Below the pieces are notes generated by a model that was given only the letters and a program-made list of their open reading frames with translations, did no database searches and was not told the DNA's origin. From IMG/VR virus record IMGVR_UViG_3300027278_000018, positions 1 to 51,034 of that record: 51,034 nt of DNA. The stretch is one strand, 5' to 3'. Within the stretch, counting starts at the first letter, position 1, and each line of letters starts with the position of its first letter. Positions 16,778 to 42,071 of this stretch are shown here, one piece after another. The DNA comes from a virus. Lineage: Duplodnaviria > Caudoviricetes. The position numbers and the translations under genes were made by a program.

Positions 16778-17028
16778 TTACAAAAGCAGGTTCATCAGGA
16801 ATTGACTCAGAAGGTGTAGCATATGATCACGCCTTTACAATAGAAATTGGAAGAGTTTCATATACATTATGCGGAGAAGATAAATATCAGGTTACGCTTA
16901 ATCTTAACTCGTCAGAGGGTCATGAAGAGATCGCACCAGAAATTCGCACAATGTCTTATGATGATTTGAATAATTGGTTCCTAAACCCAACACCAGAGTA
17001 CTACAATACAACTATAAAAAATAGCTAA
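16774..17028 (+). CDS. Hypothetical protein
   Basis: GGAGG RBS; coupled. Confidence 0.6.
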   Translation: MITKAGSSGIDSEGVAYDHAFTIEIGRVSYTLCGEDKYQVTLNLNSSEGHEEIAPEIRTMSYDDLNNWFLNPTPEYYNTTIKNS

Positions 17029-17038
17029 GGAGTAGTCC

Positions 17039-17851: not shown

Positions 17852-17854
17852 GCA

Positions 17855-19665: not shown

Positions 19666-19675
19666 TGGGGGAAAG

Positions 19676-19795
19676 ATGATAAAGTCAATAAGGTGTAAGT
19701 TGTTTGGACATAAGATAATAACTGCTGGTTCATGCCCATTTACTGGTAAATCATATAATGCATGTAAAGTTTGTGACAGATTGTTTGAGCAATAA
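19676..19795 (+). CDS. 39-aa Cys/His protein (RCKLFGHK...C...CKVC), not in ORF track
   Basis: GGGGAAAG RBS; motif typical of small phage Zn proteins. Confidence 0.6.
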   Translation: MIKSIRCKLFGHKIITAGSCPFTGKSYNACKVCDRLFEQ

Positions 19796-19796
19796 G

Positions 19797-20336
19797 ATGA
19801 AAGAGTATCTTGATGAAAATGTTTATGTTGTTAGAAATTTTTTATCTTATGAAGAACTTTCAATACTATTAGAAGAATCGCATGAGCCCTCTGGTTGGGA
19901 GATAAGGGGCGGAGATAAAAACCCAATGCAGAATGTATGGAATAAGTTTATAGAAGGAACTAATAAAATTATTTTCTATAAAGATGGTGGAATATTTAAT
20001 AAGATAGAGTCTCTAATGAATACAGATATGATTAAATATAAGAAAGCATATGTTTTACAAAAAATGACAGAAATGCCAGTTGAAGAAAAAACAGCTTTAT
20101 TTTGGCACTATGAAAATAAAAACAATCATCTTGTCGCTGGAAGCTTTGTGCTTTATTTGAATGACGATTTTGAAGGAGGAGAGCTTGTCTTTAAAAACAA
20201 TGATATTCTTGTAAAGCCAGAGGCAAACATGTTCGTGTTTATTCCCGCAGGCGAGGATTACACACACTCAGTTAATAGTCATCAAGGTAATGATAGATTA
20301 ACCTATTACGGGGTGTCCTTTTATGAACAAAATTAA
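19797..20336 (+). CDS. 2OG-Fe(II) oxygenase (HxE variant)
   Basis: HYE, LYLNDDFEGGEL, HSV...DR. Confidence 0.88.
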   Translation: MKEYLDENVYVVRNFLSYEELSILLEESHEPSGWEIRGGDKNPMQNVWNKFIEGTNKIIFYKDGGIFNKIESLMNTDMIKYKKAYVLQKMTEMPVEEKTALFWHYENKNNHLVAGSFVLYLNDDFEGGELVFKNNDILVKPEANMFVFIPAGEDYTHSVNSHQGNDRLTYYGVSFYEQN

Positions 20337-20351
20337 TGGTACAATTGTAAT

Positions 20352-21023
20352 ATGAAATTAGAAAAGACTATTGTTGACGGAGATCTGTGGTACATAGACA
20401 ACTTCCTGACAGAAGAAGAGATTAATCTTTTTAAGCCATACATGTATGATAAAAACGAATGGTACGTTACCATGAGGTCCCCATATAAAAATGTTTTAAA
20501 TAAATTTATTGGCGCCGAAGTAATGCTTGATGATGAAAAAAATGTAACAACCATACCAGGGCCACAAGACAAAATACCTGAATGGTTCTATCCAATATTT
20601 GATAGAATAAGAGAGGTTTTGCCATTTGGTCATTACCCACAGGCTGCAACGCTACAAACATTCAAGGGAATGACACAGCAGCAAGCAAAATCATTATTGA
20701 TTCCAAAGTATCAAGAAAAATATATTGATAAAGAAATTGACTTTGCTTTTGACTGGCATTATGAAAGAGTTCCAGACTACAATGACAATATAGCAAGATC
20801 ATTTAGTGTTTATTTAAATGATGACTTTAAGGGCGGGGAACTAGAATTTAGACATAAAAGCTATAAGATAAACCCAAAGCCAGGAAGATTTGTTTCCATA
20901 CCAGTTGCACCTGAATTCGAACATAAAGTTGCTTTTGTAGATGGTAATGATAGACATACCTGGTATGGTGCAATTTTTGATACAGAAGATTTAGCAATGT
21001 ATAGTGAGCCAGGAAACTGTTAA
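20352..21023 (+). CDS. 2OG-Fe(II) oxygenase (HxE variant)
   Basis: HYE, YLNDDFKGGEL, HKV...DR. Confidence 0.88.
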   Translation: MKLEKTIVDGDLWYIDNFLTEEEINLFKPYMYDKNEWYVTMRSPYKNVLNKFIGAEVMLDDEKNVTTIPGPQDKIPEWFYPIFDRIREVLPFGHYPQAATLQTFKGMTQQQAKSLLIPKYQEKYIDKEIDFAFDWHYERVPDYNDNIARSFSVYLNDDFKGGELEFRHKSYKINPKPGRFVSIPVAPEFEHKVAFVDGNDRHTWYGAIFDTEDLAMYSEPGNC

Positions 21024-22527: not shown

Positions 22528-23109
22528 ATGGATATAGTTTATGATAAGATAGCTTTTTTTAGAAATGCTTTGCCTAATCCTAAAGAATGGTTAGATAAAG
22601 TAGAATTAATAGAAGACGATTTAATTAGTGCATGGATCCCATGGCAGTCTAACCCTGATGATGGAACTACTCCCTATGTTTATGGAGATAGGAAACATTT
22701 GCTATTAAAAGACTCTGAAAGCAATAAAGAGTCTGCGGCCTTAGTTAAGCAAGTAATAGATGCAATGGTAAACTGTGCAGAACAATATGCTAAAGAATAT
22801 AATATAAATATACCAATTGATTTAGGTTCAGCCTGTGTGCTAAATAAATATAAAGAAAATGAAGTTATGGGACAACATGCTGACTGGAATGAGCATCAAG
22901 ATATGCTTGAATATTCATTTGTTGTTTATATCAACGAAGACTATGAGGGTGGCGAGTTATATTTTAAGGACTTAGATGTGACAATAACTCCAGAAGCAGG
23001 AAGCATAGCTTTGTTCCCAGCTAAACTTCCATATTCTCATGGATCTAACCAGCTAATAAGCGGCAGAAAGGTATTTATACCTCATTTCTGGAGAAATGTA
23101 AAGTCATAA
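22528..23109 (+). CDS. 2OG-Fe(II) oxygenase
   Basis: HAD, YINEDYEGGEL, YSHG...GRK. Confidence 0.9.
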   Translation: MDIVYDKIAFFRNALPNPKEWLDKVELIEDDLISAWIPWQSNPDDGTTPYVYGDRKHLLLKDSESNKESAALVKQVIDAMVNCAEQYAKEYNINIPIDLGSACVLNKYKENEVMGQHADWNEHQDMLEYSFVVYINEDYEGGELYFKDLDVTITPEAGSIALFPAKLPYSHGSNQLISGRKVFIPHFWRNVKS

Positions 23110-25171: not shown

Positions 25172-25725
25172 GCTATGGATAAATTCGAATCATCATATAA
25201 TAAGTTTGCTAAAACTGAGCCATATAAGGTAGCATGTAGCAAATGTCTGATCCTATTTTATAAGGCTAATGATGACCCATTTGTGTGTCTGGAATGCTCA
25301 GTAAGATAGAGCATAACCTAGTTGACTAGGATACTATAAATATAGTATAATATATTATATGGCTGAAGCAAAAATACCAGGATATAAACAAAATCCACCA
25401 GACTGGTGCGATGATTGTAAATCTGCTGGAGGCGAAGAGTGTCCAGATTGTGGATGCACTCATAATTGTTGAAAGGCGGGAACAGCAAGTAATGGCAAAA
25501 AAACGGAAGTTCAATTGGGATCAACAGCTTCAATATGCCCAAGAAGCATTAGATAAGAATAAAGCCCTAATAGAGTCTACATCTAGAGGAACTAATGCAA
25601 ATAAGGCTTCATCTTGGTCTAGAAGACCATCTAAGAATAAGAGCCCATTGCAATAAATTAGCTCCTAACTCCTATATCCCCCTCCCTTTTATCTCCTTTC
25701 TATCAGCCTCCTAGAGGCTTATTTA

Positions 25726-25751
25726 GTGGAGTAAAGTGGAGCATAGTGGAG
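25726..25751 (+). promoter_or_regulatory. Three GTGGAG direct repeats at 10-bp period (MraZ-box-like)
   Basis: gtggag-taaa-gtggag-cata-gtggag. Confidence 0.55.
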
Positions 25752-26205
25752 AATTTATACTATAAACAACATATCATATACTATAGTTATATCTATATAA
25801 ACATACATATGTAATTGAGCATAACATACAGATGGGCGTAATGTCAATAGGACAATTTGGACATATATAGCAGCATATTGATCCATATTTGTCAATAGAA
25901 TTCATGAGGAATTTTGATCTATTTTGCCATATTCTCTACACATTTGTCGACATTCTATATGTATCTTAAATCATTTAGACATATTGTGTAGCAAATTTCA
26001 GGGATTTTGTCAAGGCCTTCGTAAATAGAAAATTTTTCCCTCAGCTATAAATTTCAGGGATTTTGATCATGTGGTCGTAAACGAAAAAATTTGCCCTCAT
26101 GCCCACACATGCAAAAAATCCACAGGATGTGGATAATCCTGTGGATAATTTGGGCTAGATATGTTTATCTATCTAACCAGGCATGCTCATATTCATTGTA
26201 TATGC

Positions 26206-26589
26206 CTAATTGATTAAATTAACTTCATCGAATTCCTTCTCCTCATACTCTCTTTGTATCCTATAGGACTGAGGTATTGATTTGAATAGTTCCGCCTTTG
26301 TTTTAGGAAGTTTAAGAAACTCAAACTCCTTGTATTCTTGTATTTGCTTGATTGCTTCGTTTAGTTCATTGGCTAGATAGGTTCCTTCTGATTCCACCCC
26401 GTCATAATCGTTGTTCCCGTGACGAAGCGATACCTCCTTGATGACCTGACTTACCAGTTCCATTAATCTATCTAATGTGTAGTACGGTTGATTAGCCATG
26501 TATCGAGCCATGATTGCTGGATTGAACCAATGGTCTTCTGTTAGATTAATCAGTTGTTCTGCTAACTTGATTTCGTTTGACTTACTCAT
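26206..26589 (-). CDS. Hypothetical protein
   Basis: AACGAAAGG RBS; TATAAT upstream. Confidence 0.7.
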   Translation of the reverse strand: MSKSNEIKLAEQLINLTEDHWFNPAIMARYMANQPYYTLDRLMELVSQVIKEVSLRHGNNDYDGVESEGTYLANELNEAIKQIQEYKEFEFLKLPKTKAELFKSIPQSYRIQREYEEKEFDEVNLIN

Positions 26590-26685
26590 TTTCCGCCTTT
26601 CGTTAACTGTCTATTATACCAAAATGAAGCAGGGCTGGCAATGCCCACGGATCCCACCGCTATCGCCAGCCCCACACTTGGGTCC

Positions 26686-26832
26686 TTACTTAGCCTTGTT
26701 AACTGGCTCTGCTGTAAAGACAATTCCTTTGGTTGCTGCCTCTTGGAGGGCGACCTTTGCTGCACCTGAGAAACGTCCACGAACGCCTACTGTAATGCCC
26801 TGAGCTTTTAGATATTCACGCTTTGTTGTCAT
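26686..26832 (-). CDS. 48-aa Lsr2 DNA-binding-domain-like protein (MTTKREYLKAQGITVGVRGRFS...), not in ORF track
   Basis: RE.L...G..V..RGR pattern resembles the Lsr2 C-terminal domain; GAAAGG RBS; own promoter near 26869. Confidence 0.65.
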   Translation of the reverse strand: MTTKREYLKAQGITVGVRGRFSGAAKVALQEAATKGIVFTAEPVNKAK

Positions 26833-27058
26833 TTGTTTTTATCCTTTCAAGATAATTGGTTTGATTTAATTATAGCAACTTTTCACGGATTTGTAAATAG
26901 TTACCGTAAGCAACTTTTTCTGCCCTTATGTTAAATTAGTTTGTTCAATACGATCTTTAATTAATTTAGCAATGATGTTATGGGCCTCAATGTTTTCGGT
27001 TTCGCTGCCACCCCACAGGAGCTTTTGGGCTTTATCTAATTGATCGTTCACGTACCTG

Positions 27059-27367
27059 TCACTCATCTTCATCTTCGTCCTCTTCCTCTTCTGGATCCAC
27101 AAGGTACCCACGGTTTAACATCCAATCATGTACATCTTCGTTGTGTTGTTCTGCACCGTACTCTAGAGAGAAGCCTTGCCCAGCCTCTACAGCCTCACAC
27201 AGGTGGTCCCACATCTGTTCTTCTGTTACTGTACAGGTGTAGTCCCCGTCTTCCATTTTGTACTTGATGACGTCCCATGTCCATAGCCAAACCAAGGAGA
27301 GACCTAGGTCGGTGGTGCTTAGGATGTCAATACATTCGTTTAGTTTATCTTTATCTTCAGGTTTCAT
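27059..27367 (-). CDS. Hypothetical acidic protein
   Basis: Coupled ORF. Confidence 0.65.
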   Translation of the reverse strand: MKPEDKDKLNECIDILSTTDLGLSLVWLWTWDVIKYKMEDGDYTCTVTEEQMWDHLCEAVEAGQGFSLEYGAEQHNEDVHDWMLNRGYLVDPEEEEDEDEDE

Positions 27368-27657
27368 TTCATTCCCGCTTTCAGTTCTCGGTCATATGCT
27401 TCACCAATAGCAAATGACAATTGATAAGTTAGTTGATATAGTTCAACCAAGGCGTCTAGTCGTCCCGTTGCCTCAGTACGTGCCATGGAATCCATTGCCT
27501 CTTCTGATTCATCTTCAATTGCTTGTGCGTCTGAAAGTTCTTGCTCAGCAATGAACATTAGATTCTTTAGTTCCCCGTGCATGATGTCAAGGCCTGATAC
27601 TCCAGCATTGACCATGCGTTGCAAATGGGGCGGGAGCCCAATATCTTCTGCATTCAT
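27364..27657 (-). CDS. Hypothetical protein
   Basis: GCGAAAGG RBS. Confidence 0.65.
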   Translation of the reverse strand: MNAEDIGLPPHLQRMVNAGVSGLDIMHGELKNLMFIAEQELSDAQAIEDESEEAMDSMARTEATGRLDALVELYQLTYQLSFAIGEAYDRELKAGMK

Positions 27658-27866
27658 TATTCATACCTTTCGCTAGTAGAGTTCATTATATCAGTTGCCA
27701 CTGACAATAAATGTTCGGTTGCATCAATTGCTCCCATATAGAATGAATCTGATTCCCAGTATTCATCCTCATTTAAAGGTTCATTGTTTCTTGCATCCTC
27801 TAAGTCCTGGTTAAGACTAATTAAATGAATCTTCATATATTCCAGGAATTGAGATGACTTAGTCAA
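27657..27866 (-). CDS. Hypothetical protein (contains an internal TGTCAG-N10-TATAAT promoter)
   Basis: GGAGG RBS; TTG start. Confidence 0.6.
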   Translation of the reverse strand: MTKSSQFLEYMKIHLISLNQDLEDARNNEPLNEDEYWESDSFYMGAIDATEHLLSVATDIMNSTSERYE

Positions 27867-28144
27867 AATAGCCCTCCGCCCATAATCCTTCTAAGAAACT
27901 AGATACTTCTTCTAATCCCTTGGAAATGCCTGAATTGCCTAATTGTTTACAAGCAATATTAATAGTGGCAAGCATCATATTTATATCAGATATTTCGTAA
28001 CCTAACATTCTATTGCCTCCATATATTTAACCATAGTGTTTAATGTTATATGAATGTGACAATCACAATCATCAGATGTGTCTCTGTCATCAAAATGAAT
28101 TAAGTTGTCATCATAGATATAATTAATTAGTTCCTGTGTAGTAA

Positions 28145-28357
28145 TCATAAGCAGTATTCGTCTCCCTCAATATAGCCATAATATTCATTGTATGATTGTT
28201 TTAAGTTATCAGGAGCAAATGACATGAATTGCCATTCCGCATAATCGCTACCCTCATCTAAATTTTTACTGTTCCATTGTTCAAATAGGTGTTGCTCAAT
28301 ATCTACTTGAATTGCTCCAAGGATATGTTCTCCTACTGTATCTGTAAATGCTTCCAT
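28145..28357 (-). CDS. Hypothetical protein
   Basis: Coupled ORF. Confidence 0.6.
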   Translation of the reverse strand: MEAFTDTVGEHILGAIQVDIEQHLFEQWNSKNLDEGSDYAEWQFMSFAPDNLKQSYNEYYGYIEGDEYCL

Positions 28358-29094
28358 TATGCTTCCGCCTTTCTATATTCGGGTACTTTAGTGTCTAAGT
28401 ATATCTTATGGGTCTGACAAATTGCTACAGCCTCTAGGTCTGCCTCGCCAAGCCAGTGGCAATTGCCACAGATTTCGCCACAGTCATTTTCTTCACAGTA
28501 TTCCATTTGGTTAATGGCATCACAATCACGACATTGGTTGTCGTATTCTGATTCTGAGATAATTTCTCCACGAAGCATCTCTAACTCCCCACCCCAACCT
28601 GTTTCTTCTTCATAAGATAAAGTCATAAGTAAATTAGGGTATTGTGCAGATAGTTTAAGCAAAGCATTTATTGGACGAGACCAAGCAGTATTAAAGTTAT
28701 AATGGACTACATAGTTCTCGCCATTTTCTGCTTCCTCGATAGTTGTATCAGGATAAAGATTATCTTCTGATACGGCTACATCCCATTTAGTGCTCCACTC
28801 ACGGACATTAAAGTTATACCAGTCATTGGTCTCAAACTTCATTGCCTCAGAAAAATCGGTGGAACGAGGAGGTTGTCCATGATATACCTCATCAGTAATA
28901 CCAGCATCTCTATAGTTATAGATATTATGAAAAGCAAAGATAGGATTAACATACTTAGTCTGCTTAACATCATATGATAAATCACCTACTGCAGTAATAG
29001 AATAAACGAATGGCTTATTCATCTGCTTGATTAAAGATTTTACTTGCTCAGGATTACCTTCTATAGTTAATCCATTAAATACCCAATTTGGCAT
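28357..29094 (-). CDS. DUF1281/Api92-like (YubB ferredoxin-like) protein
   Basis: MPNWVFNGLTIEG, WYNFNVREWSTKWD, FNTAWSRP, LSYEEE. Confidence 0.8.
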   Translation of the reverse strand: MPNWVFNGLTIEGNPEQVKSLIKQMNKPFVYSITAVGDLSYDVKQTKYVNPIFAFHNIYNYRDAGITDEVYHGQPPRSTDFSEAMKFETNDWYNFNVREWSTKWDVAVSEDNLYPDTTIEEAENGENYVVHYNFNTAWSRPINALLKLSAQYPNLLMTLSYEEETGWGGELEMLRGEIISESEYDNQCRDCDAINQMEYCEENDCGEICGNCHWLGEADLEAVAICQTHKIYLDTKVPEYRKAEA

Positions 29095-29269
29095 TTTATA
29101 TCCTTTCGTTGATATGTTCTAATTATAGACTAGACCACTGACAAATGGAATAGATTTGCCATGTGATACATGCCACATGATTCAGCTTTGTGGTCAAGAT
29201 CACAGAAATTCAGGCGATTTTATATTGACGTCGTAAACAAATTATAATACCCTCAGCCTTTGTGGGCAA

Positions 29270-29416
29270 ATAGAAACCCCCAGCTAAAAGCTGGGGGGTA
29301 TGAATATGGCTGCTGATTTCCAACGAAAGAAATAAACCGCTTTACTTAGCGCCTGGCCCGCAGACTAGTTAGACGCACCATTTCATTTCTATATTAAAAC
29401 CAGGACCAAGGTCCTA
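29270..29416 (-). ncRNA. Candidate ~145-nt sRNA with its own -10 and intrinsic terminator
   Basis: TATAAT at 29423-29428, 5' hairpin AGGACC/GGTCCT, no credible ORF, terminator CCCCCAGCT-TTT-AGCTGGGGG-TTTCT. Confidence 0.55.
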
Positions 29417-29423
29417 GGTCCAA

Positions 29424-29789
29424 TTATACCATAACTAGTCGACTGTATTTATCTACGAATTTATCAATTGGCAGCGAGAAGACTACCTGAGATAGGTCCT
29501 CTTCATACAGTGTAAATGTTTTCTTAGACCAATCAATCACAGGCACCTTGTGCTCGTTGTCCCCAATATGATTAATATAAAGACCCCAGCCTGTTTCTGA
29601 TTCCCATTCCTGTGCAACCAATTGAGATATGCATATACGTGTAGCATATGCCTCATCCGTCCACCGTGGTTCTGCTTTTGCTACTGCAGTGGCCAAGTGG
29701 TGCAGCATCTCTGAGCCCGCCCAATGTCCATATAGATATAATGTTTCGCCCTTAGAATCTCTGAATCCAAAGTTTGCTCTATTTCCCAT
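29424..29789 (-). CDS. Hypothetical phage protein
   Basis: MGNRANFGF...LYLYGHWAG. Confidence 0.7.
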   Translation of the reverse strand: MGNRANFGFRDSKGETLYLYGHWAGSEMLHHLATAVAKAEPRWTDEAYATRICISQLVAQEWESETGWGLYINHIGDNEHKVPVIDWSKKTFTLYEEDLSQVVFSLPIDKFVDKYSRLVMV

Positions 29790-29790
29790 T

Positions 29791-29979
29791 TTATTCCGCC
29801 GTTTCTAATTGTTGTTCTTTTTCGTAGTTGAGTAATTGTACCATTTCATGGGCCCAGTCCACAAGAGACTCGCCCTGTTTGTTTTTATGATGTCCGCAAA
29901 AATAAAGGGACATTGCATCTTTCTTTGCTTCCCACATAGCTTGCGCTGCACATTGATCACACTTAAGCCATTCAGCCAT
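29791..29979 (-). CDS. Small Zn-finger protein
   Basis: CDQC...LYFCGHH. Confidence 0.7.
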   Translation of the reverse strand: MAEWLKCDQCAAQAMWEAKKDAMSLYFCGHHKNKQGESLVDWAHEMVQLLNYEKEQQLETAE

Positions 29980-30124
29980 CATAGGTTTCCACCTTCAATC
30001 ATTTCTGAAAGACGGTCAAGGATCCAAGAATCGATGTCGGCGATATCAATCTCTGATAATTTCTCCATCAGTTCTTCACGAGCAAACTTATACCCGTCTT
30101 GAAAACCATCTTTATAATCTGACA

Positions 30125-30337
30125 TTACTTCTCCTTATATCCTGTCGCTTCTCTGTCTGACCAGTAACTTTCAGTTAAGTTATACTTGTCACGAATGCGA
30201 CTTACCTTCTCAATACTACCAGTTCCGATGTTGAAAGTCAACGGTCCACATTGTTCAGGGTCTAATCCAAGCAACTCTGCTTCCCAAGTAGCCCTCGCAA
30301 AGGCTACTTGAGTAGGAGCGGTAAGTTCAAAGTACAT
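30125..30337 (-). CDS. Hypothetical protein
   Basis: Coupled start at 30337. Confidence 0.6.
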   Translation of the reverse strand: MYFELTAPTQVAFARATWEAELLGLDPEQCGPLTFNIGTGSIEKVSRIRDKYNLTESYWSDREATGYKEK

Positions 30338-30999
30338 TAGCACTCACGCACATTACATACTTCGGTGTCATCAATTGTGATGTTACCGTTATTTGAATCA
30401 GCATAAAGAGCATCTGTAACTTCTGACTCAAGGTCCATATCATAGTCATTTTCAAGAATATTGAATGAATATGTTCCGCTAACTTCAACAGATGCAGTAA
30501 ACTGAACTTCTTTGATTAGTTCAATTGAAAGCGCTTCAGCAATTTCACGAAGTGTATCTTGGTCACCTGAATCAGCATATGCCTCGCAGATAATTTCTTT
30601 GACTGCATCAATCTGAGATAGCAGAGTAGTTACACGCTTCTGTGATTGACGTCCATTATGTAAATCCCACTCGATAGATGCAACCTTATCAGTTGCATAT
30701 TCTGCATCTGAATAACCACGGATTACTTTGTAGGTAACCAATAGGTTGGAGTTATATGTATCGGGAACTGTTACTGCAGGTGTTGTTGTATCTTCCATTT
30801 TTTCCTCTTTCGTTGTTGTTGGTGCAATTGTAGCATGCTCCACTGACAATAAGGTTGTCTTACGGCCACATGGACATGTGAGTTCTGTCACACCTGATGG
30901 GAATCCAAATCCATCTGATGATGTTAATTCAATTAGACAATCACATTCATCTGGGTCACAGACAAATGTATATTTACTTGATACTAGTTCGTTGGTCAT
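30337..30999 (-). CDS. Hypothetical protein with N-terminal Cys domain and a second in-frame start at 30798
   Basis: Leaderless ATG at 30999; internal promoter and AACGAAAGAGG RBS before 30798. Confidence 0.65.
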   Translation of the reverse strand: MTNELVSSKYTFVCDPDECDCLIELTSSDGFGFPSGVTELTCPCGRKTTLLSVEHATIAPTTTKEEKMEDTTTPAVTVPDTYNSNLLVTYKVIRGYSDAEYATDKVASIEWDLHNGRQSQKRVTTLLSQIDAVKEIICEAYADSGDQDTLREIAEALSIELIKEVQFTASVEVSGTYSFNILENDYDMDLESEVTDALYADSNNGNITIDDTEVCNVREC

Positions 31000-31101
31000 G
31001 AAGAGAATTATACACGAGGCCACTGACATTTACAAGGGATTCCAGGAAAATTTTTTGTGACTCGTAACACATTTTTAACCCCCTTACCTTTGAGGGCGGT
31101 G

Positions 31102-31175
31102 CGATCTGTAACGGACTTGAACCGTCGACCTCTACCGTGACAGGGTAGCGCTCTAACCAACTGAGCTAACAGACC
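31102..31175 (-). tRNA. tRNA-Asp(GTC)
   Basis: GGTCTGT/ACAGATC acceptor, ctacc-ctGTCac-ggtag, TTCAAGT T loop. Confidence 0.95.
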
Positions 31176-31185
31176 AATAAAAAAT

Positions 31186-31210
31186 GTGAGCAGTTTTAAA
31201 TCTTGCTCAG
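31186..31210 (-). terminator. Hairpin terminator after the DUF932 gene; related copy at 32714-32737
   Basis: CTGAGCAAG...CTGCTCA followed by T run on - strand. Confidence 0.6.
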
Positions 31211-31222
31211 GATTTTATTTAT

Positions 31223-32227
31223 TTAGAAAGCAGAAACCAATTTCTTGATTTTGTTTTTCTCAGCGGTAAGAACTGGGTCAAACCCTGATGCACCTGCCAT
31301 AAGAGTTTCACCATTTCCACGTCCTGAACGATAATAATCTAAACGCTCAGTAAGTGCATTAAACGCACCCCACTTTGTGCCTTTGATATTGGCATTGGTT
31401 GGTGAGTTGTGATACAAATCATCAAGCAGGACAACTTTGTTTTCCCACTTCTTAATTGCACCCTTAGCATCTTTTTCAGGCTTTGGATAAATTGACTGAA
31501 TCAACTTTGAGAATTCAGCATCAGTAATAGATTGCTCGAACATTGCTTTTGCTTCGATTTCAAATTCATCAAAGTAACCAAGAGCAAGCCCAAGAGTTTC
31601 ACGAGCAACTTGAATGCGACCTTCAACAGATTGCGTGTGGCGAATCTTGAAAGATTGCTTTGCATTACGCATTGCAAGATTCAAAGTGTTTTGGCATACA
31701 ACACGAACAGGAGTAACCGCTGCTTGAACAGCAACAGACCCGTCATGAGATGTCCATACGATTAGATACAACTTTGTTGCATCATTAGCACCTTGTGGGT
31801 CAAGCACCATTGTGCGAGGAATATCAACTGTACCGAATACAACTTTGCCCTGCTTAAGAGAGCCAGCAGATTCCCAACGACAATCAGCATTAGCATCATG
31901 AATAGCATCAGCGAATGCAAATAATTCTTCATTCTGCACTGGCTTGTAACGCTTTCCAACTGTTGCAAGAACATCTGTTCCCTTGTTGAATGGGTTGTCA
32001 CGAATTACAAGAGATGCGGTAGATACATCATTCCAAGATTCTGGAATATGCTCAGTGATTGGAGATAGACGAACATTCCAATTAGCCAACTTTGCTTCTT
32101 CAAGCATTGTCTGTGTAGTTACTTCCTCATCTTGTGTAAAGATTCGGTTAGCAAGATTGTGCCATGCAGGTGCACCACGAAGAGCAAAAGCAACTTCGCC
32201 GTTTTCCATTTCTAGATTATGAGCCAT
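31223..32227 (-). CDS. DUF932 family phage/plasmid protein
   Basis: AWHNLA, YKPVQNEELF, ESAGSL, SHDGS, PVRVVCQNTL, IRHT, GTKWGAFNA; start MAHNLE with GAAAGG RBS. Confidence 0.9.
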   Translation of the reverse strand: MAHNLEMENGEVAFALRGAPAWHNLANRIFTQDEEVTTQTMLEEAKLANWNVRLSPITEHIPESWNDVSTASLVIRDNPFNKGTDVLATVGKRYKPVQNEELFAFADAIHDANADCRWESAGSLKQGKVVFGTVDIPRTMVLDPQGANDATKLYLIVWTSHDGSVAVQAAVTPVRVVCQNTLNLAMRNAKQSFKIRHTQSVEGRIQVARETLGLALGYFDEFEIEAKAMFEQSITDAEFSKLIQSIYPKPEKDAKGAIKKWENKVVLLDDLYHNSPTNANIKGTKWGAFNALTERLDYYRSGRGNGETLMAGASGFDPVLTAEKNKIKKLVSAF

Positions 32228-32417
32228 GAATTTATTTCCTTTCGATTGGTTATTGTTGTAAGTATAACAGGTGCCACTGACATTGTCTAGATTAAACACT
32301 CATTTGTCCAAATTGTGACATGTGATCATTCTCACAAAATTCCAGGGTTATCCACAAGTACTCGTAAGCCTGTGGATAACCCCTCACCTTTGGGGGCAGA
32401 ACTGGGAGATCCCAGCT

Positions 32418-32681
32418 CTACTCTAGTTTAAAGCTTATACGTGCAGCGCTTTGAATTTTGCTTTTTAGTTTGTGCACAGTGTCTTCATCAAAAAACATTG
32501 CTGTTATCTTTTTCTTTTTCTGTGCGTCATAAGCATAAGCATTAACACGTCCGCTGAATTGTTTGATGTTACTAATTACTAATTCAGTTAAATATTCTTT
32601 ATCGACTCCGCTATCTGAATAGATAGTTAAATCATTTAACTTGTTTGCGTCATAAATTTCTACACGAAAACGATTTTTCAT
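32418..32681 (-). CDS. Hypothetical protein
   Basis: AAAGG RBS. Confidence 0.6.
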   Translation of the reverse strand: MKNRFRVEIYDANKLNDLTIYSDSGVDKEYLTELVISNIKQFSGRVNAYAYDAQKKKKITAMFFDEDTVHKLKSKIQSAARISFKLE

Positions 32682-32751
32682 TTTATTGCCTTTGTTAGTA
32701 GTTACACCGAAGTGTGAGCAGTTTGGCGACTTACTCAGGTCGTTGGTTTAT

Positions 32752-33174
32752 TTAGAGATAACGAGCAACCGCTTGATAAGTTGATGTGGAAACTGTTTCC
32801 TCATCTGTCATCTGCAAGATACGGATTGCGTTAGAGATTTCCTCTTTCTGCTCACGATAGTTGTAGATAGAGATTTGCTCAAAATCCTTGATAGGCTCTT
32901 TAGGCAAGTCCTTCTCTGATACTGTGAGGTCGAAGTCAATGTTTAACTGATTATTCCAAGAACGGAAGTTAGTGCGGAAGTTTTCTGCCTTCTTGATGTT
33001 TGCTACTGCATAATCAACAAGTTCCTTCTGCCAAGCCTTACGAGCCTTTTCATACTTTGCTTCGTTGGCTTCTTGTGATGTGTAGTCAAGTTCTAGTTTT
33101 GCTAGTGCGCCTTCTAGTGCCTTGATTACCTTTGGTGTTGCAATTTTAACTGAGATTGCTTTGCTTCTAGCCAT
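32752..33174 (-). CDS. Hypothetical protein
   Basis: AACGAAAGAGG RBS, own promoter and terminator. Confidence 0.75.
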   Translation of the reverse strand: MARSKAISVKIATPKVIKALEGALAKLELDYTSQEANEAKYEKARKAWQKELVDYAVANIKKAENFRTNFRSWNNQLNIDFDLTVSEKDLPKEPIKDFEQISIYNYREQKEEISNAIRILQMTDEETVSTSTYQAVARYL

Positions 33175-33266
33175 GTGTTTCCTCTTTCGTTAGGTGGGTT
33201 AGTGGTTTATTAAGTTGTAAGTATAGCAGAGGGGTCTGACATTTCTGCGACCCCCCTGCTTTTAGG

Positions 33267-33449
33267 CTATGCGCCTAATAGTGCCTTAGCAGATACCGAA
33301 GTCCAACGAGTTTCCTTTGTTGGCATTTCTAGTAGCACACGCACCGAGCCAGATGCCTGTGGGTGGATTTCTTTAATCACACCTGTTTTCTTTGACTTTA
33401 GTGTGGTGAATAAATCGCCCACCTGATAGAGATGATTATCTATTGTCAT
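33267..33449 (-). CDS. Small SH3/KOW-like beta protein
   Basis: YQVGDLF...GVIKEI...VRVLL. Confidence 0.6.
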   Translation of the reverse strand: MTIDNHLYQVGDLFTTLKSKKTGVIKEIHPQASGSVRVLLEMPTKETRWTSVSAKALLGA

Positions 33450-33545
33450 TTATTGCCTCTTTTCTTTGTTAGGTTAGTAGTATAGCATTGGGGTCTGACA
33501 TTAGTCTAGCCCTATCTCATTATTTGAGAATGTTATTATGTGACC

Positions 33546-33812
33546 TTAGTCACTTTCAGGTAGCCAAGCGTGGAGATGGTGCTGGTCTATAATTGCGTGA
33601 GCGGGTGCGTGGGTGCTTCCTCGATACGATACGCCTTCGGGCATTTCGATCAATTTATCATAGTCCTCGTCATAGTATGCGTCAATAGCCTCGATACATG
33701 GTTCGACCATAGATAATGGAACGGGCGGGTAATGATTACTCTGTAGATGAATAGAAATAGCCATTTCTAAATCTAACTCAGTAGATAAATCTAGTGCTGT
33801 ATTGTATCCCAT
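33546..33812 (-). CDS. Hypothetical protein
   Basis: HLQSNHYPPVP; coupled. Confidence 0.7.
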   Translation of the reverse strand: MGYNTALDLSTELDLEMAISIHLQSNHYPPVPLSMVEPCIEAIDAYYDEDYDKLIEMPEGVSYRGSTHAPAHAIIDQHHLHAWLPESD

Positions 33813-34015
33813 TAGTTAGCCACCTTTAGAATTGCATAAGTACCATTTTTATTTATTTCATCAAGGATAGGACCTAAGCGAGAGCCTACCAATTCTTTTA
33901 GCATTCCTTCAAGCATTTGCACACGCATTGACTCGTCAAGCATTTGCATTTGGTGAGTAACTGGATGGCCTTCTGCAAACTCAGTTATGAACTTTAGACT
34001 ATGTTCTACTATCAT
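33812..34015 (-). CDS. Hypothetical protein
   Basis: AACGAAAGG RBS. Confidence 0.65.
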   Translation of the reverse strand: MIVEHSLKFITEFAEGHPVTHQMQMLDESMRVQMLEGMLKELVGSRLGPILDEINKNGTYAILKVAN

Positions 34016-34082
34016 TTTTTGCCTTTCGTTGTTGGTATAAGAGTATTATAGCGTATAGCACTGACATTACCTAATCCATTCT

Positions 34083-37000
34083 CGGCGTGTCGCAGCTTTT
34101 GTGATAATACTCACATTTCCAGGGGTTGTGGATAACTTACTTAAAGCTGTGGATAACCCCTCTCTTTTGGGGGCGGAGCCCTAAAAGGATTTTAGGACTG
34201 CCCATATTGCTATAGGTATTGGTAATACAAGTACACTGCATAGTATAAATCCAATCACGGTACCAATTAATTCTGCCATTATTTTTTACTCGCAGAAAAT
34301 CTAATGTCGGCTTTTCCGTAAACGCAGAGACCGCAAGAAACGCATGCGGATCCATTACTAGAGATAAGTGGAATACTTTTCATATTCTCAGGGCATTTAG
34401 CGCCAGGCTTGCCAGTCAATTCTTTCATTGTGTCTTCAGTTGCAGCGAATGTCTTTCCCAAATAGGCCAGGCGGACCTTGGAATTAGTTTTCAAATCGAA
34501 TGCTATTTCTTTATTTTCATCATCCGTGGAATAGTACAGTGAAAGATTAGTAACATCTTTTAGAATAAGCGCTGCAGACTTTACTCGTGTATAAACCCAA
34601 AATTGAACATCAGGATGATTAGAAATAATTACTTTCCATGCGTATGTATAAATATCATTAAAGAAATCTCCGTCCCAGTGTATACGGAATAATTTAGGGG
34701 CGCCTTTCTTTTCACAATCAGCAATAAATTCAACAATCATCTCATCTAATAGAATAAGCATTGTATCCATATCGGCATTGCGTAGCAATTCCCAATTGTG
34801 TAGCAGATTAGTTTTTACTCCAGGGAATAACTTTTCGAGTTTTCCTGCGTAGCAAACGCTTTCACAAATACTAGTGGCACCAGGGCACGAGTAAGCCTTT
34901 CCAGCAGGTAATCCGAAAGTGTTAGCAATTGCGGCTTGCTTTCCATTTTTTGTGACAAGGTTAGCCACCTTTCTATCGTTAGAGCGTTTCAATTTCATAG
35001 GGGTAATTATAGCGGTTAGGTCTGACATATTAGTAATCCTCATCCATACCGTGGCCAGCGGAAGCAAGGGCGTCGGAGTCGGCCCAGCCAGTTAGTTCAT
35101 AGAATTCCATTTCCTCAGACGCATAGCATTCAGCGCAGGTATAGTCATCACCATAGACTTCATAATCTTCATCAGAATAGAAAATTTCTTGAGCCCCGCA
35201 AATTTCATAGTTAAGACAAGCAACAGTAAATTGTTCCATTAGTAGCACTCTCCACATACTGGGTAATAGTATTCCCCGTCGTCGGTTACAAATTGGGTAG
35301 TTTCTTGGTCGCATGCGATACAGTTGTTCATAATTGAACCTTTCGTTGGTTGAATGGCAAGTATAGCAGAATATACTGACAAAAACTAATCGACACGCCG
35401 CATTTTCAGGAGCTTTTTAAAATGTGTCGTAATTCACATTTGGACCCCTCTCCTTTAGGGGCCGCCCTTACATTATTCTAGATCAATTTTCTTTTTGTGT
35501 TTTATTTTTCTAAAATACTTTTTTTTATTGCGTACAGGTTGCGCCGCATTACTGCGACGCAATTCCTGAATACGCTTTACTTTATCTCGAAGTGAATTTT
35601 GGGACATGATACCCACTCGCTTCATGAAATCTGCTTACATCAAATCGCTCATTATCTTTCGCAAACATCTCTGCGAAATCATTTACAATTTTAGAAAATA
35701 AGGCAGGGTGAGTTTTATCGCTGGCATACTTTAAGATTTCAGCGGTTGCCACATAGTCTTTGCGAGTCATCATTTTGTTACGACCTTTCGACCTTCACGA
35801 TAAAAAGTTTTTGTATACATTTTGCCAGTTGGCATTTGTAAATTTACAGTTGAGTATTCATTAGCAAATCCCCAATCGGTGAACGCTAAAAAATCGGTGA
35901 ACGCTTCTAAAGCGTCTACATAGTTTTTATTCCAGTGGATAGGCTGGCTATCATAGGCTAAAGTAATCTGGTACATAGTTTCCCTTTCGTTAGTTAAAAA
36001 ATAAATCTTGTTCTTTGCCGAAATCGCAATCGCAAGTTTCGACATCGAAATCATTTTCGTTTCCGAAAAAAATTAAACCTGTTGAGTTACACTCTGAGCA
36101 ATCTATTCGCATTACTGAGTTAATCACGCTTCACACTCACATTCTTTTGAGTAATCAAATTCGCAGAAATAGCAACCCATTTGTTCGCCGTGTGCTTTAC
36201 ACACATAAATAAATTGGCTTTCATCACAATGAAATTTCATTTCATCTTTAATAAAATAAAACTCGTTTTCATCTAAATAATTTTTAATCATTTAGTCACC
36301 TACCTTTACGGCAACGGCTCGGTAAGTAGTATTTCCAAACCATTTTGATTTTCCGCTAGTTGTAGAATAAACAGGGCGTACCTCTACACGATACGCTTCC
36401 GCGCCGTCATAGTGTAGGCAGGCTGGGTGTTTTTCTGCTGAGATAATCTCTCCCTCTACTGAGCGAGAGCGGTACATTTTGCCGATAAGTAAATCTTCGA
36501 CAGTATAGACATTTGCTGACATTAGTTGTCACCTTTCGTTTGTTGATAGTAGCAATTATAGCCTATGGGTCTGACATTTTCACATTACTAGCCAGTAATT
36601 CCACATAATAAGACGCTCAAGTCGTGTGATAAAGGTCACATAAAAATGTCCGTTTTGTCTGTCAAATCGACACGCCGTAAAATTCCAGGGTTTTTATAAC
36701 TCTTTCATAACGACACGCCCGACCCCGTGCCTTTGCGGGCGGATCAACTTTGTCAAGTCGACACGCCGCTAGTTATTGAAAATCTTTTAGAATTTCATCT
36801 AGCTGATTTATTTGCTCATCGTTAAGATGATCTAATTGAATTGTTTTTTCAAATCCAAATAAGTCGCTCATTCATTTTCCATTTCTGCTAGATAATCCTC
36901 GTGTTCAATAAGCCCAATTGAAAATGCGATAGGGTCGCAACATTCCAAAATCTCGGCGGGAGTAAAAGTTGAATAACCAATTTTTACAGTTGGATAAACA

Positions 37001-38313
37001 TCATTTAGTAAATCAATAAAACTTTCTTTGATTTCTAAATCAATTTCAAATTGCGATTTCATCTGCAACCTCTTTCCATTCAAAACAATAAGAATCTGAA
37101 ACAAAAGTATTTTTCACAACGCTATCAAATAAAGATAACGCTTGATTTTCGTCCTCTGCGTCTATGTCTAACCAAACGCCGAATGTGTATTTTTTCATTT
37201 ATTTATTCTCGCAATTCTCGTGTCGTGTTTTTGGCGCAAGGACTACTTGCCCGCATACGCATTCATTCATTAGCCCGCTAGGGTAATCTCTTACAGTTGC
37301 GAATGTTGTCCAATTACTAGCCATTATTCAAACGCCCCTTCATTTAGTAATCCTAATTCAATGTTGAATAATTCATCGGGTGTTGCCTCGGATAAATCTA
37401 CCCAGCCAGCACCCTCATCATCTATGCGAAAGATTTCTACATAACCCATTTATTCTGCCTCCTTAGTATTGAATAGAGAGGACATCTTATCATTAGCCTC
37501 TGACATTGTTGCGATAGCCTTTAATAGGCTAGCCTTGCGTTGCGCCTCAACGTGCGCCTTGTATTCTTCAAGTGTCATTTTAACGACCTTTCGTTGTTGT
37601 TATAGTAGGAATTATAGCAGAGGGGACTGACATTTACCACACGACACGCCGTATTTTGATAAATCTTTTTTTGTGATAAACATCACAAAATTCAAGGGTT
37701 TTCCACAGACATACGTAAGTTATCCACAGCCCCCACACTTCGTAGGGGCAGCTATCGCCCATGTCAAGGCGACACGCCGTTAGCCTAGTGTGAGTTATCC
37801 CACTCTCTAAAATCGGCTACGATCTCACGCCACATCATGCGCCCCATGTATAGGGCGGGTACTAGAAGGGCTATCTGTACTAGTGTAGTTATTAGTCTAT
37901 TCATTAGTTATCCCAACTTAGTGCGAATACTTTTGCTAGTTCTTCATCATCTACATCATCAAAGTCATCTAGTGGAGGTTGTTCTTCATCTACCTCATCT
38001 AGGTATGCGTATGCGTCTGATACAGACGATTGGATAGACTCGTATTTGTCTATGCTATTTGTAGCGTATGAGTATGCGTATGACATTAGTTCTGTTCTAC
38101 CTTTCGCATGTGTGCTACAACATTTTTAGAAACCTTTTGCAGGTCTGCTACGACCTTATTCATTTCGTCTGCGCTCTTAGCGGTGAACCCTGCGCCTAGT
38201 AGTTGAGCGCCGTCCCATAGTGAGTATGTGATAGTCATTATCTGTTATTCTTTCGTTAGTAGTTATAGTGGAATTGTAGCGTATAGGGCTGACATTATCA
38301 AGCCGACACGCCG
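34083..38313. promoter_or_regulatory. CGACACGCCG motif (WhiA-type GACAC core), 8 copies
   Basis: 35391, 36668, 36711, 36759, 37642, 37770, 38304; inverted copy at 34083. Confidence 0.75.
34279..34998 (-). CDS. GP88-family (mycobacteriophage gene 88-like, Fe-S/radical-SAM-like) protein
   Basis: FGLPAG...SCPGATSICESVCYA, FRIHWDGDF, FWVYTR, CVSCGLC; leaderless start at 34998. Confidence 0.8.
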   Translation of the reverse strand: MKLKRSNDRKVANLVTKNGKQAAIANTFGLPAGKAYSCPGATSICESVCYAGKLEKLFPGVKTNLLHNWELLRNADMDTMLILLDEMIVEFIADCEKKGAPKLFRIHWDGDFFNDIYTYAWKVIISNHPDVQFWVYTRVKSAALILKDVTNLSLYYSTDDENKEIAFDLKTNSKVRLAYLGKTFAATEDTMKELTGKPGAKCPENMKSIPLISSNGSACVSCGLCVYGKADIRFSASKK

Positions 38314-38536
38314 TATAGCGAGAGGGTTAGGGTGTGAGTTACCTCACACGCCATTCTGTCCACATAGGCAGACGCTCAGGGTCAGTATCATCATACCAAC
38401 GCTCTATGTTCTGCTCGCAATCTTGGCAGAAAGTGTATTGAGTATCCAACACCTCTGAGATAGCAGACTTCATAGGGTTGTGCTCTCGGCACATTGTGTT
38501 TAGTGTAATCATTTGACTACCTTTCTTGTTAATCAC
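35030..38536 (-). CDS. Run of small (30-80 aa) hypothetical early genes, e.g. 35030-35239, 35239-35331, 35582-35773, 35770-35976, 36292-36522, 37904-38086, 38339-38512
   Basis: AACGAAAGG-type RBS or start/stop coupling; units begin at TGTCAG-N10-TANNNT promoters. Confidence 0.6.
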
Positions 38537-38942
38537 CTTGATTAACTCTTATGTCTTAAGACTATCATGGGGGTCTGACAAATTTCAACTCGCAAAACGG
38601 ACATTAGGGACAAATTAAAAAAATAGTTAGTGAGATAGGTCACATTTAGGCATGTATGTGCGGTCTATCTAGACAAAACGGACATTAAAATAGTGTGTAT
38701 CGTACAAGATAAAAATATATTAACATTTTCTGAAATCTGAAAAAGCTTGACATCGAAAATATAAATAGTATAATTTTTCTAGGGGGGTCGGGGGGTCAGT
38801 AAATCAATAAATAATAAATATTAAATATATAGTAAGACCTAAGACCTAAGATCAAGTGATACAACCAAAAAAAATATTTTATTAACATTTTACTATATTC
38901 AAAATAATAGTCAACTAGAATAATACTGATATAATTAATCAT

Positions 38943-39924: not shown

Positions 39925-40605
39925 ATGGAAATGTTTAATTACGATTTAATCAAACTTCATCCTAATTTTACACAGATTGAAGAAAACGTCTGGGTAATTA
40001 AAAACTTTATCTCAGATGAAATTTGCGACTCACTTGTTGAGTATGCTGAATCTCAGCCAGAAGAAAAATGGTGGGAAAGAAATAAAAGAGAATGGTGGCA
40101 TGGCAAATTTTTGTTTGCTGCTGAAAACGACAGAATAATTAAAACCTTTATTGATATTAAAGAAGAAATAGCAAAGTTATTTACAGAAGACTGGTTTCTC
40201 AGCGATATGGCCTCTATCCATAGAATGCAAAAAGGAGAAGGCATGTTTGAGCATTCAGATAATCCAACAGAAAGTATGGGCAGAAACAATTTTGTAGAAC
40301 TATCGTTTGTTCTCTATATAAGTGATTTTGAGGGCGGAGAGATATACTATCCAAAAATCCCAATGGAATATAAGTCGGAAAAAGGAGATCTTCTTATACA
40401 TCCAGGAGTTGGAAGATACTTCCATGGGGTACATCCAGTAACTAGTGATGCAGTCCGATATGTAACAACAGCTTTTGCATACGATAGAAGAGTTAAAGAG
40501 CTTAGGGATAAAGGTCTAGTATATGAGGATGTTAATTCTGGTCAACCAATAAATGAAATTACTGAAGCTCAAGCAACTGGAGAGAATGGACCATTAAATG
40601 AATAA
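39925..40605 (+). CDS. 2OG-Fe(II) oxygenase
   Basis: HSD, FEGGEIYY, HGV...RY. Confidence 0.9.
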   Translation: MEMFNYDLIKLHPNFTQIEENVWVIKNFISDEICDSLVEYAESQPEEKWWERNKREWWHGKFLFAAENDRIIKTFIDIKEEIAKLFTEDWFLSDMASIHRMQKGEGMFEHSDNPTESMGRNNFVELSFVLYISDFEGGEIYYPKIPMEYKSEKGDLLIHPGVGRYFHGVHPVTSDAVRYVTTAFAYDRRVKELRDKGLVYEDVNSGQPINEITEAQATGENGPLNE

Positions 40606-40740
40606 AATGTGGAAAATGTTAGGACTGCTTGCAACTCTTGTACTTTCAGGTGCTTTGCTAAATCAAATTTTAAATTTGGCGGGGGATTTAGAAATCTTTG
40701 ATTTTGATCTAAATGAAGACATTGATAAGGATATATCCTA

Positions 40741-41376
40741 ATGTCAAAGATCTATATGTTTGGAAACTCCCATGTATCTAACTATGCAGCATCTCTTGAA
40801 TACTATGGTAATCCGTATACCTTAAAGTGGAGATCTTTTAATTCCGCCAGTCCTGAGCCATTTTATGGAAATATTAAGTTAAAGGAAATTACATTCTCTT
40901 GGCTCATACCTTCGGCTGCATGGACAACTGTAGAAGATCCAAGTATTTTAGAAAAGATGTCAGAAGGCTTTGACATACAAGAAGACGACATTGTAATTGT
41001 ACATTGGGGAGATCAAGATATATTAAGACATCTACCAGGACATAAAAATGAGATGTACTTGGTACAAGCATATATAAACCGTATAAAGGATCACTTTAAG
41101 TGTAGGGTCATTTTTCTTGAGCCCGTCCCAATTCCTGAAGAAAGCTTTGTATGTCCAATAGAAGACTATAAGTTTGTTTATTCAAGGGAAGATATTATTG
41201 AAGCTTATGATAACTTTGTTAAAATTTTGCGTGAAGGTGCAGAAACAATATCTATACAAAATAACATCATATCTTCATTTAATCTAACAGAAAACGAAAC
41301 AGATGATGGAGCTCATTTAAACCAAGAATATTCTAGAAGCCTTATAGCCCACATAAGAGGCGTTCTTGATGTCTGA
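40741..41376 (+). CDS. SGNH/GDSL hydrolase-like protein
   Basis: FGNSH block I and DGAHLN block V. Confidence 0.65.
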   Translation: MSKIYMFGNSHVSNYAASLEYYGNPYTLKWRSFNSASPEPFYGNIKLKEITFSWLIPSAAWTTVEDPSILEKMSEGFDIQEDDIVIVHWGDQDILRHLPGHKNEMYLVQAYINRIKDHFKCRVIFLEPVPIPEESFVCPIEDYKFVYSREDIIEAYDNFVKILREGAETISIQNNIISSFNLTENETDDGAHLNQEYSRSLIAHIRGVLDV

Positions 41377-41504
41377 GTATGGGTCGCATCCTCAAAATGG
41401 CTTAAATCGGCTACAGAAGACTTATGAGATATATGAGGTTCTTCTTCCGCGCCGCACTTTTCGCACTTTCACTATATCAACACCAATTGGGATAGAGTAA
41501 TCAT

Positions 41505-42071
41505 ATGGAACTAAATAAAGAATACATATCTGGTGATATATGGAAGATAGAAGACTTCATAACCGAAGAAGAGTGTTCAATAATAATGAATGACTGTATA
41601 AACGAAGACTGCTGGTTTGGAGACCCAGGAGCTTTTGAAAATGGCAACAAATCAGAGTTAACAGAAAGCGCAAAAGAAACTTTATCTAAAATAAATTTAA
41701 GAATTATAGCAACTATGAATAACGATAACGAAATGGCCAATGCGGTAGACATGATTCAAAGAATGACTATTAATAGCGGACCAAATGAAAAATGGGCTCT
41801 ACCTCCCCATACAGACACTCATGATGGAGGAGATAGTCTTCATGTAACTAGGGGTTATGTACTGTATTATAATGATAATTTTGAAGGTGGAGAGATTATG
41901 TATCCAAATCAAGGAATAACTTTAAAGCCAAAAGCAAGAATGCTCATATCTCATCCAGGAGGAGAAGAGTATTTACACGGAATTAAAAAAGTAACTAATG
42001 GTGTTAGATATATGACAACTGGCTTTGTATTTGATAAAGAATATTGGTTTAAAAGAACTTTAGGAAAGTAA
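41505..42071 (+). CDS. 2OG-Fe(II) oxygenase
   Basis: HTD, YYNDNFEGGEI, HGIKKVTNGVRY. Confidence 0.9.
   Translation: MELNKEYISGDIWKIEDFITEEECSIIMNDCINEDCWFGDPGAFENGNKSELTESAKETLSKINLRIIATMNNDNEMANAVDMIQRMTINSGPNEKWALPPHTDTHDGGDSLHVTRGYVLYYNDNFEGGEIMYPNQGITLKPKARMLISHPGGEEYLHGIKKVTNGVRYMTTGFVFDKEYWFKRTLGK

Follow-up and report, generated by a model that had tools for sequence, protein, structure and literature searches.

A 51,034-nucleotide (nt) stretch of DNA from an uncultured tailed virus (Duplodnaviria; Caudoviricetes; IMG/VR record IMGVR_UViG_3300027278_000018, positions 1 to 51,034), which was analysed over its whole length and is called the window here, contains a block of small minus-strand genes, many of which are preceded by the same word, TGTCAG, exactly ten bases before a -10 hexamer. 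Which factor reads this word, and in response to what, is the question that the locus raises. The arrangement is that of the actinobacterial promoters controlled by PafBC, an activator that responds to single-stranded DNA (ssDNA), and the sequence comparisons reported below make it likely, with a probability of roughly 0.7, that the PafBC of the host reads 15 of these boxes and turns the genes of the block on, or up, when ssDNA is present.

A pattern scan for TGTCAG-N10-TAnnnT returned 17 matches in the window, where 100 shuffled sequences gave a mean of 0.59 and a maximum of 4. All 17 are on the minus strand, within 27685–38580; with spacers of other lengths, from 5 to 19, the two words occurred together at most five times. 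The -10 word is TATAAT, TATACT or TACAAT in 14 of the 17 matches, and a weak copy has TAGTCT. Two matches, at 36500–36521 and 37484–37505, were rejected as promoters, since they are inside coding sequence and look like chance codon words. The remaining 15 are, judging from their position, likely promoters, each heading a gene that starts 7–45 nt downstream, either with a leaderless ATG or behind a word resembling a ribosome-binding site. Numbered along the minus strand, these PafBC-type promoters are found at 38559–38580 (1, the weak copy), 38273–38294 (2), 37611–37632 (3), 36555–36576 (4), 35360–35381 (5), 35006–35027 (6), 34045–34066 (7), 33479–33500 (8), 33220–33241 (9), 32261–32282 (10, before a DUF932 gene), 31007–31028 (11), 30827–30848 (12, an internal start in the 30337–31029 frame), 29122–29143 (13), 28398–28419 (14) and 27685–27706 (15). 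Two genes of the window, the gp88 frame behind promoter 6 and the gene behind promoter 11, have their ATG 7 nt past the -10 word and are likely to be leaderless. Spacers and flanks vary among the copies, while the hexamer and the spacing are constant.

None of the 17 matches has TTGACA at the -35 position (16–18 nt), the closest being TTGAAA and TTGATA, at the pair of boxes lying furthest upstream, and none of the eight plus-strand TGTCAG words in the window has the array geometry. Ordinary promoters of the TTGAC-N16/18-TATAAT type were found on the plus strand at 5939, 14678, 21568, 25322 and 38747. No SOS box (CGAAC-N4-GTTCG, up to one mismatch) occurs in the window, so that nothing there marks a LexA-type phage promoter. 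A first-pass annotation, made from the sequence of the window, had counted 13 clean copies and a weak one; the array is real and the copy that it quoted at 29144-29122 is exact, but the numbers become 17 matches, 14 with a good -10 word and 15 likely promoters. Its remarks that the geometry was not noticed in the plus-strand regions and that the spacer is too short for a -35 agree with our counts. The last gene of the block (26206–26589) has instead an ordinary TTGCCA-N17-TATAAT promoter at 26613–26641, with no box at -26.

The array is not peculiar to one contig. Close relatives of the DUF932 protein are encoded at 329 viral loci, some of them on contigs of 110–120 kb, and the array was present in all of the 80 related loci examined, with 7–18 boxes each. 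In these loci 1077 TGTCAG-N10 matches were co-oriented with the genes and 2 were opposite, and the 1077 matches at N10 compare with at most 103 at other spacings; the hexamer is TGTCAG in 95% of the phage boxes. As the relatives are close kin (91–100% protein identity), counts across them are not independent. In five near-complete relatives, 14–17 boxes were found in a single block and few elsewhere, one of the outlying boxes preceding the gene of SSB, the protein that binds single-stranded DNA, in 2 of the five. Promoter 10, before the DUF932 gene, has its counterpart in 80/80 loci, and in 58 distinct sequences its TGTCAG is 100% invariant, with mid-spacer positions conserved at 52–76%. A further word, CGGACA(A/T)AT, is located about 27 nt upstream of this box (32300–32310), its GGACA being conserved at 98–100% in the 58 sequences; words of this type are also found at 36655–36680 and 38640–38690 of the window, and similar ones in the repeats of Streptomyces phages of cluster BE.

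One could suppose that the boxes have no function and are either remnants of duplication or a word present by chance. The two matches that look like codon words and the closeness of the relatives are in favour of this, but spacers and flanks differ while hexamer and spacing do not, and the number of matches is far from the 0.59 expected; to this explanation we assign a negligible chance.

What the boxes resemble is well described. In the PafBC consensus, tGTCgg(N10)tA(N3)T, the 5' portion covers -23 to -28 and two arginines of PafB read the GTC; ssDNA-bound PafBC of mycobacteria inserts between domain 4 of SigA and the DNA (PMC8635444). TGTCAG is a listed variant of the motif (PMC8151990). PafBC is activated by ssDNA as its ligand and can bind its motif in DNA only together with RNA polymerase (RNAP; PMC11804915), and the expression of adnA is PafBC-dependent (PMC8682763). 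Of the features of mycobacterial and actinobacterial PafBC promoters, also called RecA-NDp or recA P1-type, the element TGTC(A/G)G with its invariant GTC, the ten bases to a SigA-type TAnnnT and the lack of a -35 consensus were all found in the array, whose spacing is exactly that of the PafBC layout; with a transcript start 6–7 nt behind the -10 word, the boxes would fall at -28 to -23. The identification of this layout in the first-pass annotation is thus backed by sequence, geometry, conservation and, as described below, by the promoters of a plausible group of hosts.

The host of this uncultured aquatic phage is most likely an actinobacterium. A candidate order was reached through one Actinomycetota record, by convenience and not as proof; the phage AhpC had been tried as a host marker and was rejected, as 60 of the 61 loci lay outside the actinobacteria and the single Actinomycetota genome that it yielded served as no more than an entry point. 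The genomes of the candidate order are mostly of 1.2–1.5 Mb, with 43–53% guanine plus cytosine and a rhodopsin, which suggests Nanopelagicales. The host pafBC that the first-pass annotation had presupposed was found in this order, itself no proven host: a PafB homologue is encoded in 61/61 genomes, both GTC-reading arginines are kept in 12/12 loci read, and pafC directly follows pafB in the one locus read. When the best 30 of the 61 recA loci of the order were considered, a GTCnG-N10-TAnnnT box was present at all 30, and in 17 of them a TGTCAG box abuts an SOS box, with a spacer that is close in sequence to those of the phage and can equal them, some copies being one base off a phage copy. Many of these genomes have a second, downstream box, CGTCRG-N10-TACCTT, 115–170 nt upstream of recA and behind an SOS-controlled promoter, and this is the only good recA box in 13/30.

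A matrix built only from phage sites (307) was then run on the 1310 upstream regions of one candidate-host genome, G021 (1.38 Mb). Its top 14 included a yneA-like LysM gene, rmuC, recA, an adnA-like helicase gene, a dnaE2-like polymerase operon, whose box abuts an SOS box, ssb and a radA-like gene. For these 7 damage genes in the top 14 we calculated P = 4e-8 to 3e-5, assuming 40–100 damage genes in the genome and with a cut-off chosen post hoc. At the true spacing 10 sites of G021 scored above 11, against 1, 1, 4 and 3 at shifted spacings. We infer a small-genome aquatic actinobacterium with PafBC as the host. Two cultured phages of Nanopelagicales are 39-kb phages not of this type (PMC10202952), and no host link for the phage was found in passages of PMC12143481 and PMC8223512.

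Whether PafBC would act alone on these promoters is a different matter. The region 29162–38644 holds 12 palindromes TGTGA-N6-TCACA, which we take to be the consensus of CRP, 6 perfect and 6 with one mismatch. The perfect ones start, on the minus strand, at 38348, 37687, 36640, 34115, 32336 and 30892, and 0.03 would be expected. Of the 15 boxes, 11 have a CRP-type site 34–64 nt upstream, at offsets weakly phased at about 10 bp (p about 0.02); the same clustering was observed in three relatives and was absent from two BE phages, and the candidate hosts encode a CRP with the usual recognition helix. Seven perfect boxes of what is presumably the DnaA consensus, TTATCCACA, are located at 26128, 26140, 32348, 32371, 34127, 34148 and 37720. 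The first two form a tandem (26128–26148) about 400 nt inside the likely left end of the genome, where they could serve replication or titration. In addition, between 34083 and 38312 there are eight WhiA-type boxes, GACACGCC, according to the motif in PMC13473873, some of them 18–26 nt upstream of a PafBC-type box. The first-pass annotation had overlooked these CRP-, WhiA- and DnaA-type sites, and its description of the array was to this extent incomplete. Given such composite cassettes, together with the TG at -15/-14 (a TGn extended -10) in 8 of the 15 promoters, PafBC may be one input of several.

These same features could be taken to mean that the promoters fire constitutively, the SigA holoenzyme (with RbpA/CarD) acting on a strong, often extended -10 and reading TGTCAG itself, or through another host factor, with no ssDNA signal and with CRP and WhiA as activators. 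An extended -10 raises promoter activity in M. tuberculosis (PMC3898074). The CRP-type sites with their weak phasing would fit as well, and early genes normally need immediate expression. Constitutive firing, however, leaves unexplained both the invariant TGTCAG at exactly N10 and the presence of the same word at the recA, adnA-like, ssb and radA-like genes of the candidate host. WhiA was considered as the reader of the -26 word and rejected: it binds upstream of the -35 (PMC10243135) and has separate boxes here, while the word, in the wrong position and with no -35, is not GACAC. We therefore regard constitutive firing as unlikely, and PafBC as the preferred reader of the box.

The same box was also searched for in other phages. 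Among 22 genomes of cultured phages matches are rare and often precede recombination genes. In Mycobacterium phage Marvin a box at 36843–36864 ends 6 nt before the exonuclease gene gp62, which is followed by the annealing protein gp63, and the gp62 stretch is common to 19 records at >99%; in Microbacterium phage Appa one match precedes recE and another ssb; Tyrumbra has three, before an exonuclease gene, an ERF gene and a gene of no assigned function; IPhane7 has one before a resolvase gene, besides a second match; and a match in Bumble is in an unannotated region. In a census of IMG/VR, the box and the -10 word were followed by an ATG 6 nt on in about 200 stretches, compared with 29 when the spacing was set at +1. 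Among the 125 matches listed, 115 open a frame of at least 45 amino acids (aa) and 65 resemble the family of the window phage; at 22 a YqaJ-like exonuclease of some other phage begins, as Pfam confirmed in 10/10 representatives. Leaderless starts of such exonucleases are at L330, L340, L342, L349, L352, L358, L361, L364, L376 and L402, and at L438 a PafBC-type promoter opens a gene for a pyrimidine-dimer glycosylase. Close relatives of the Marvin exonuclease, of the Tyrumbra exonuclease and of one YqaJ exonuclease were found at only 1, 3 and 4 loci, respectively.

The occurrence of one box in unrelated phages argues for a shared host factor, and bears on the possibility that an activator of the phage, encoded or delivered with the virion and of non-WYL sequence, reads the box in the manner of T4 MotA/AsiA. 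A WhiB-like, SigA-binding protein and many uncharacterized small proteins are indeed encoded, and the phage box is more uniform than the boxes of the host. On the other hand, neither a WYL domain nor sigma-70 region 2 was detected when 4 complete relatives were searched, and a search of 3 showed no helix-turn-helix domain of the CRP or WhiA type. A Pfam search for helix-turn-helix regulators found none in 117 frames of G002, taken outside the early block and the frames scanned in the window and not exceeding 420 aa, and none other than WhiB in 101 frames of the window. The phage-encoded mimic of PafBC that the first-pass annotation had left as an option is weakened by these results, and we regard an activator of the phage's own, which would need a fold that these searches do not recognise, as very unlikely.

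The position of the boxes within the genome was considered next. The tailed phage to which the window belongs has genes for a WhiB-like protein, a ribonucleotide reductase, numerous 2OG-Fe(II) oxygenases and tail fibres, besides four tRNAs; it is likely an actinophage of about 115 kb related to Streptomyces cluster BE. The small-gene block occupies 25725–38800 on the minus strand, with a right edge uncertain between 38.4 and 38.9 kb. In near-identical contigs the depth approximately doubles at 25725–25754 in 4/4 DNA runs, where the contigs break, and drops again near 38.4–38.9 kb in 2/2 runs; the depth of contigs does not amount to a copy number, and strains that occur together could contribute to it. 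Owing to this sharp and shared step, and to the layout of BE phages, in which the DUF932 gene is present twice, the block is likely a collapsed direct terminal repeat of about 13 kb. Genes of a terminal repeat would enter the cell first whichever end leads, and in this sense those of the block can be called early, a designation of the first-pass annotation that thereby gains indirect support.

If the repeat is present in two copies and is replicated, its sites could also act as a sponge titrating PafBC-RNAP, CRP, WhiA and DnaA away from the host chromosome; this would dampen the response to damage or to phage and bring replication and division of the host to a stop. The block has 6 perfect CRP-type, 8 WhiA-type and 7 DnaA-type sites, against 0, 11 and 10 in the 1.38 Mb of G021, and PafBC has been linked to phage resistance in work cited by PMC12848934. 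But all 15 boxes point into a gene start 7–45 nt away, being thus built as promoters, and the PafBC–motif contact requires RNAP (PMC11804915, as above). Titration as the explanation of the boxes is therefore very improbable, somewhat like the phage-borne activator; sponge and switch are, however, not mutually exclusive.

According to the interpretation that we prefer, the small genes of the terminal repeat would be headed by 15 hybrid promoters, made of a -26 box TGTCAG, ten bases and a SigA-type -10, and the host PafBC–SigA–RNAP would read the box in place of a -35 when ssDNA appears. The ssDNA could derive from the incoming linear ends of the phage, resected by AdnAB-type enzymes, or from pre-existing damage. 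The CRP-, WhiA- and DnaA-type sites and the extended -10 would tune each unit, and some basal firing without PafBC is to be expected. In this family and in unrelated phages, a box before SSB, exonuclease and annealing genes would supply recombination proteins when DNA ends are chewed.

Several observations weigh against PafBC as the reader of the boxes. A box array like that of the window was found in none of the 22 cultured phage genomes, and some of their matches are not where they would be expected, as in PatrickStar (antisense in a tail gene), in Marvin, whose second match is inside gp53, and in Oaker (before an uncharacterized gene). In four further Microbacterium phages (Cinna, Megan, Kozie and KaiHaiDragon) the strict pattern matched in 2/4; with a relaxed GTC core, chosen after the strict result and in phages that are interrelated, there were, in favour of PafBC, 6 sites at N10 against 1, 0, 0 and 0 at other spacings, all 6 just before an exonuclease or ERF gene or their operon, in 4/4 phages. 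The products of the block are mostly of no known function and are not repair genes. The extended -10 in 8 of the 15 promoters and the mostly near-consensus -10 words would raise basal activity, and the cultured BE relatives drive this module with ordinary promoters, so that such a life style can do without control by PafBC. On the host side, the shifted-spacing controls in G021 also included 2–4 genes of repair or replication in each top 20, partly at the same sites. The window and G021 share only tRNA matches of 73–84% and proteins of 30–52% identity, too distant for a host link. A 390-aa alanine-rich signal-peptide protein (11085–12257), which may be a surface protein, had one strong match (42%) in the 61 genomes; as this was on one short contig, with one further marginal match, it was not used as host proof. 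A phylum-wide sample of recA loci, of which 21 of 30 were scored and 9, not orientable, were dropped, showed the box in 14/21 and TGTCAG in 4/21; the word, being found at other actinobacterial recA loci, does not pin the host. The motif, its spacing, its location and the parallels on the host side are direct observations; the identity of the host, the binding of PafBC and the induction all have the standing of deductions from sequence.

A wider view, which we put forward tentatively and at somewhat below even odds, is that many actinophages hijack the ssDNA alarm of the host, their own resected ends activating PafBC, which would then fire phage promoters. A few promoters before recombination genes might be controlled in this way in soil phages and the whole early module in the aquatic family, a division to which the same reserve applies. 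Equally tentative is the idea that the CRP, WhiA and DnaA sites read the energy, division and replication state of the cell, commitment following only in a suitable one.

Other features of the window can be listed briefly. Within the block, on the minus strand, are the DUF932/TIGR03299 protein (31223–32227), with 50–52% identity to terminal-repeat genes of Streptomyces BE phages, a GP88-family protein (PF17338 by Pfam; 34279–34998) and a tRNA-Asp(gtc) at 31101–31175. The WhiB-like protein, recognised by domain search, is encoded on the plus strand at 6289–6615; it is a marker of actinobacterial hosts and a possible partner of the host WhiA. At least nine 2OG-Fe(II) oxygenase genes, with AhpC/AhpD, thioredoxin and a luciferase-like monooxygenase, are located at 754–1563, 15887–21023, 22528–23109 and 39925–42071, and the phage AhpC is closest to proteobacterial proteins. 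A frame cut by the end of the window (50573–51034) begins with a PASTA-like stretch and contains PPFFPP(H/Y)F in many tandem copies. The runs that best match the phage are labelled marine metagenome, others freshwater; the RNA runs X19 and X20 held only contigs of relatives, mostly at 90–95% identity, and were not counted as evidence of expression.

If PafBC does read the boxes, a stress activator linked to phage resistance becomes the starter of phage transcription, which would parallel, in the form of positive control, the known exploitation of LexA by phages. This would concern an abundant family, to judge from the 329 viral loci, probably preying on dominant aquatic actinobacteria, and ultraviolet light or other DNA stress would be predicted to change the outcome of infection. 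With the cultured examples, the question can be taken up experimentally in M. smegmatis and Microbacterium, and damage-inducible phage promoters could be of use as tools.

The comparison with known systems helps to define what would be new. The terminal repeats of T5 and SPO1 are packed with promoters for small takeover genes, as is the block described here, but their early promoters are ordinary strong -35/-10 ones. The Streptomyces BE phages (Stanwilliamsviridae), such as Jay2Jay and Karimac, share with the window phage a repeat of about 12–13 kb, small minus-strand genes, short units and the DUF932 gene, yet in the same module they have TTG-N17/18-TAGACT promoters, no cluster of CRP sites and no TGTCRG-N10 box in their first 16 kb. 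In the middle promoters of T4 a MotA box upstream of a normal -10 similarly replaces the -35, with AsiA (PMC8635444); T4 supplies its own activator, whereas none was found in the window phage or its complete relatives. With respect to the PafBC promoters of actinobacterial hosts, the phage differs in carrying 15 copies in 11 kb, mostly before uncharacterized genes, and with respect to the host recA promoter in a stronger -10, the lack of an adjacent SOS box and the joined CRP-type sites. The first-pass annotation knew of no phage regulon of this kind, and none with PafBC or RecA-NDp promoters is described in the open literature as covered by listings and the beginnings of abstracts, a scope that ends at subscription papers; a 2025 study cited in PMC12848934 links pafBC with mycobacteriophage resistance. 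In the window-phage family no sign of a repressor was seen in the frames scanned. Phages that use sites of host regulators in their promoters to read the state of the host are already known for LexA (GIL01 and coliphage 186), Spo0A (phi29) and CtrA (phiCbK-like phages), as summarised in PMC9437464; PafBC promoters on a phage would add a new co-option, in which, unlike in these cases, an ssDNA-sensing activator replaces -35 recognition and covers a whole early module.

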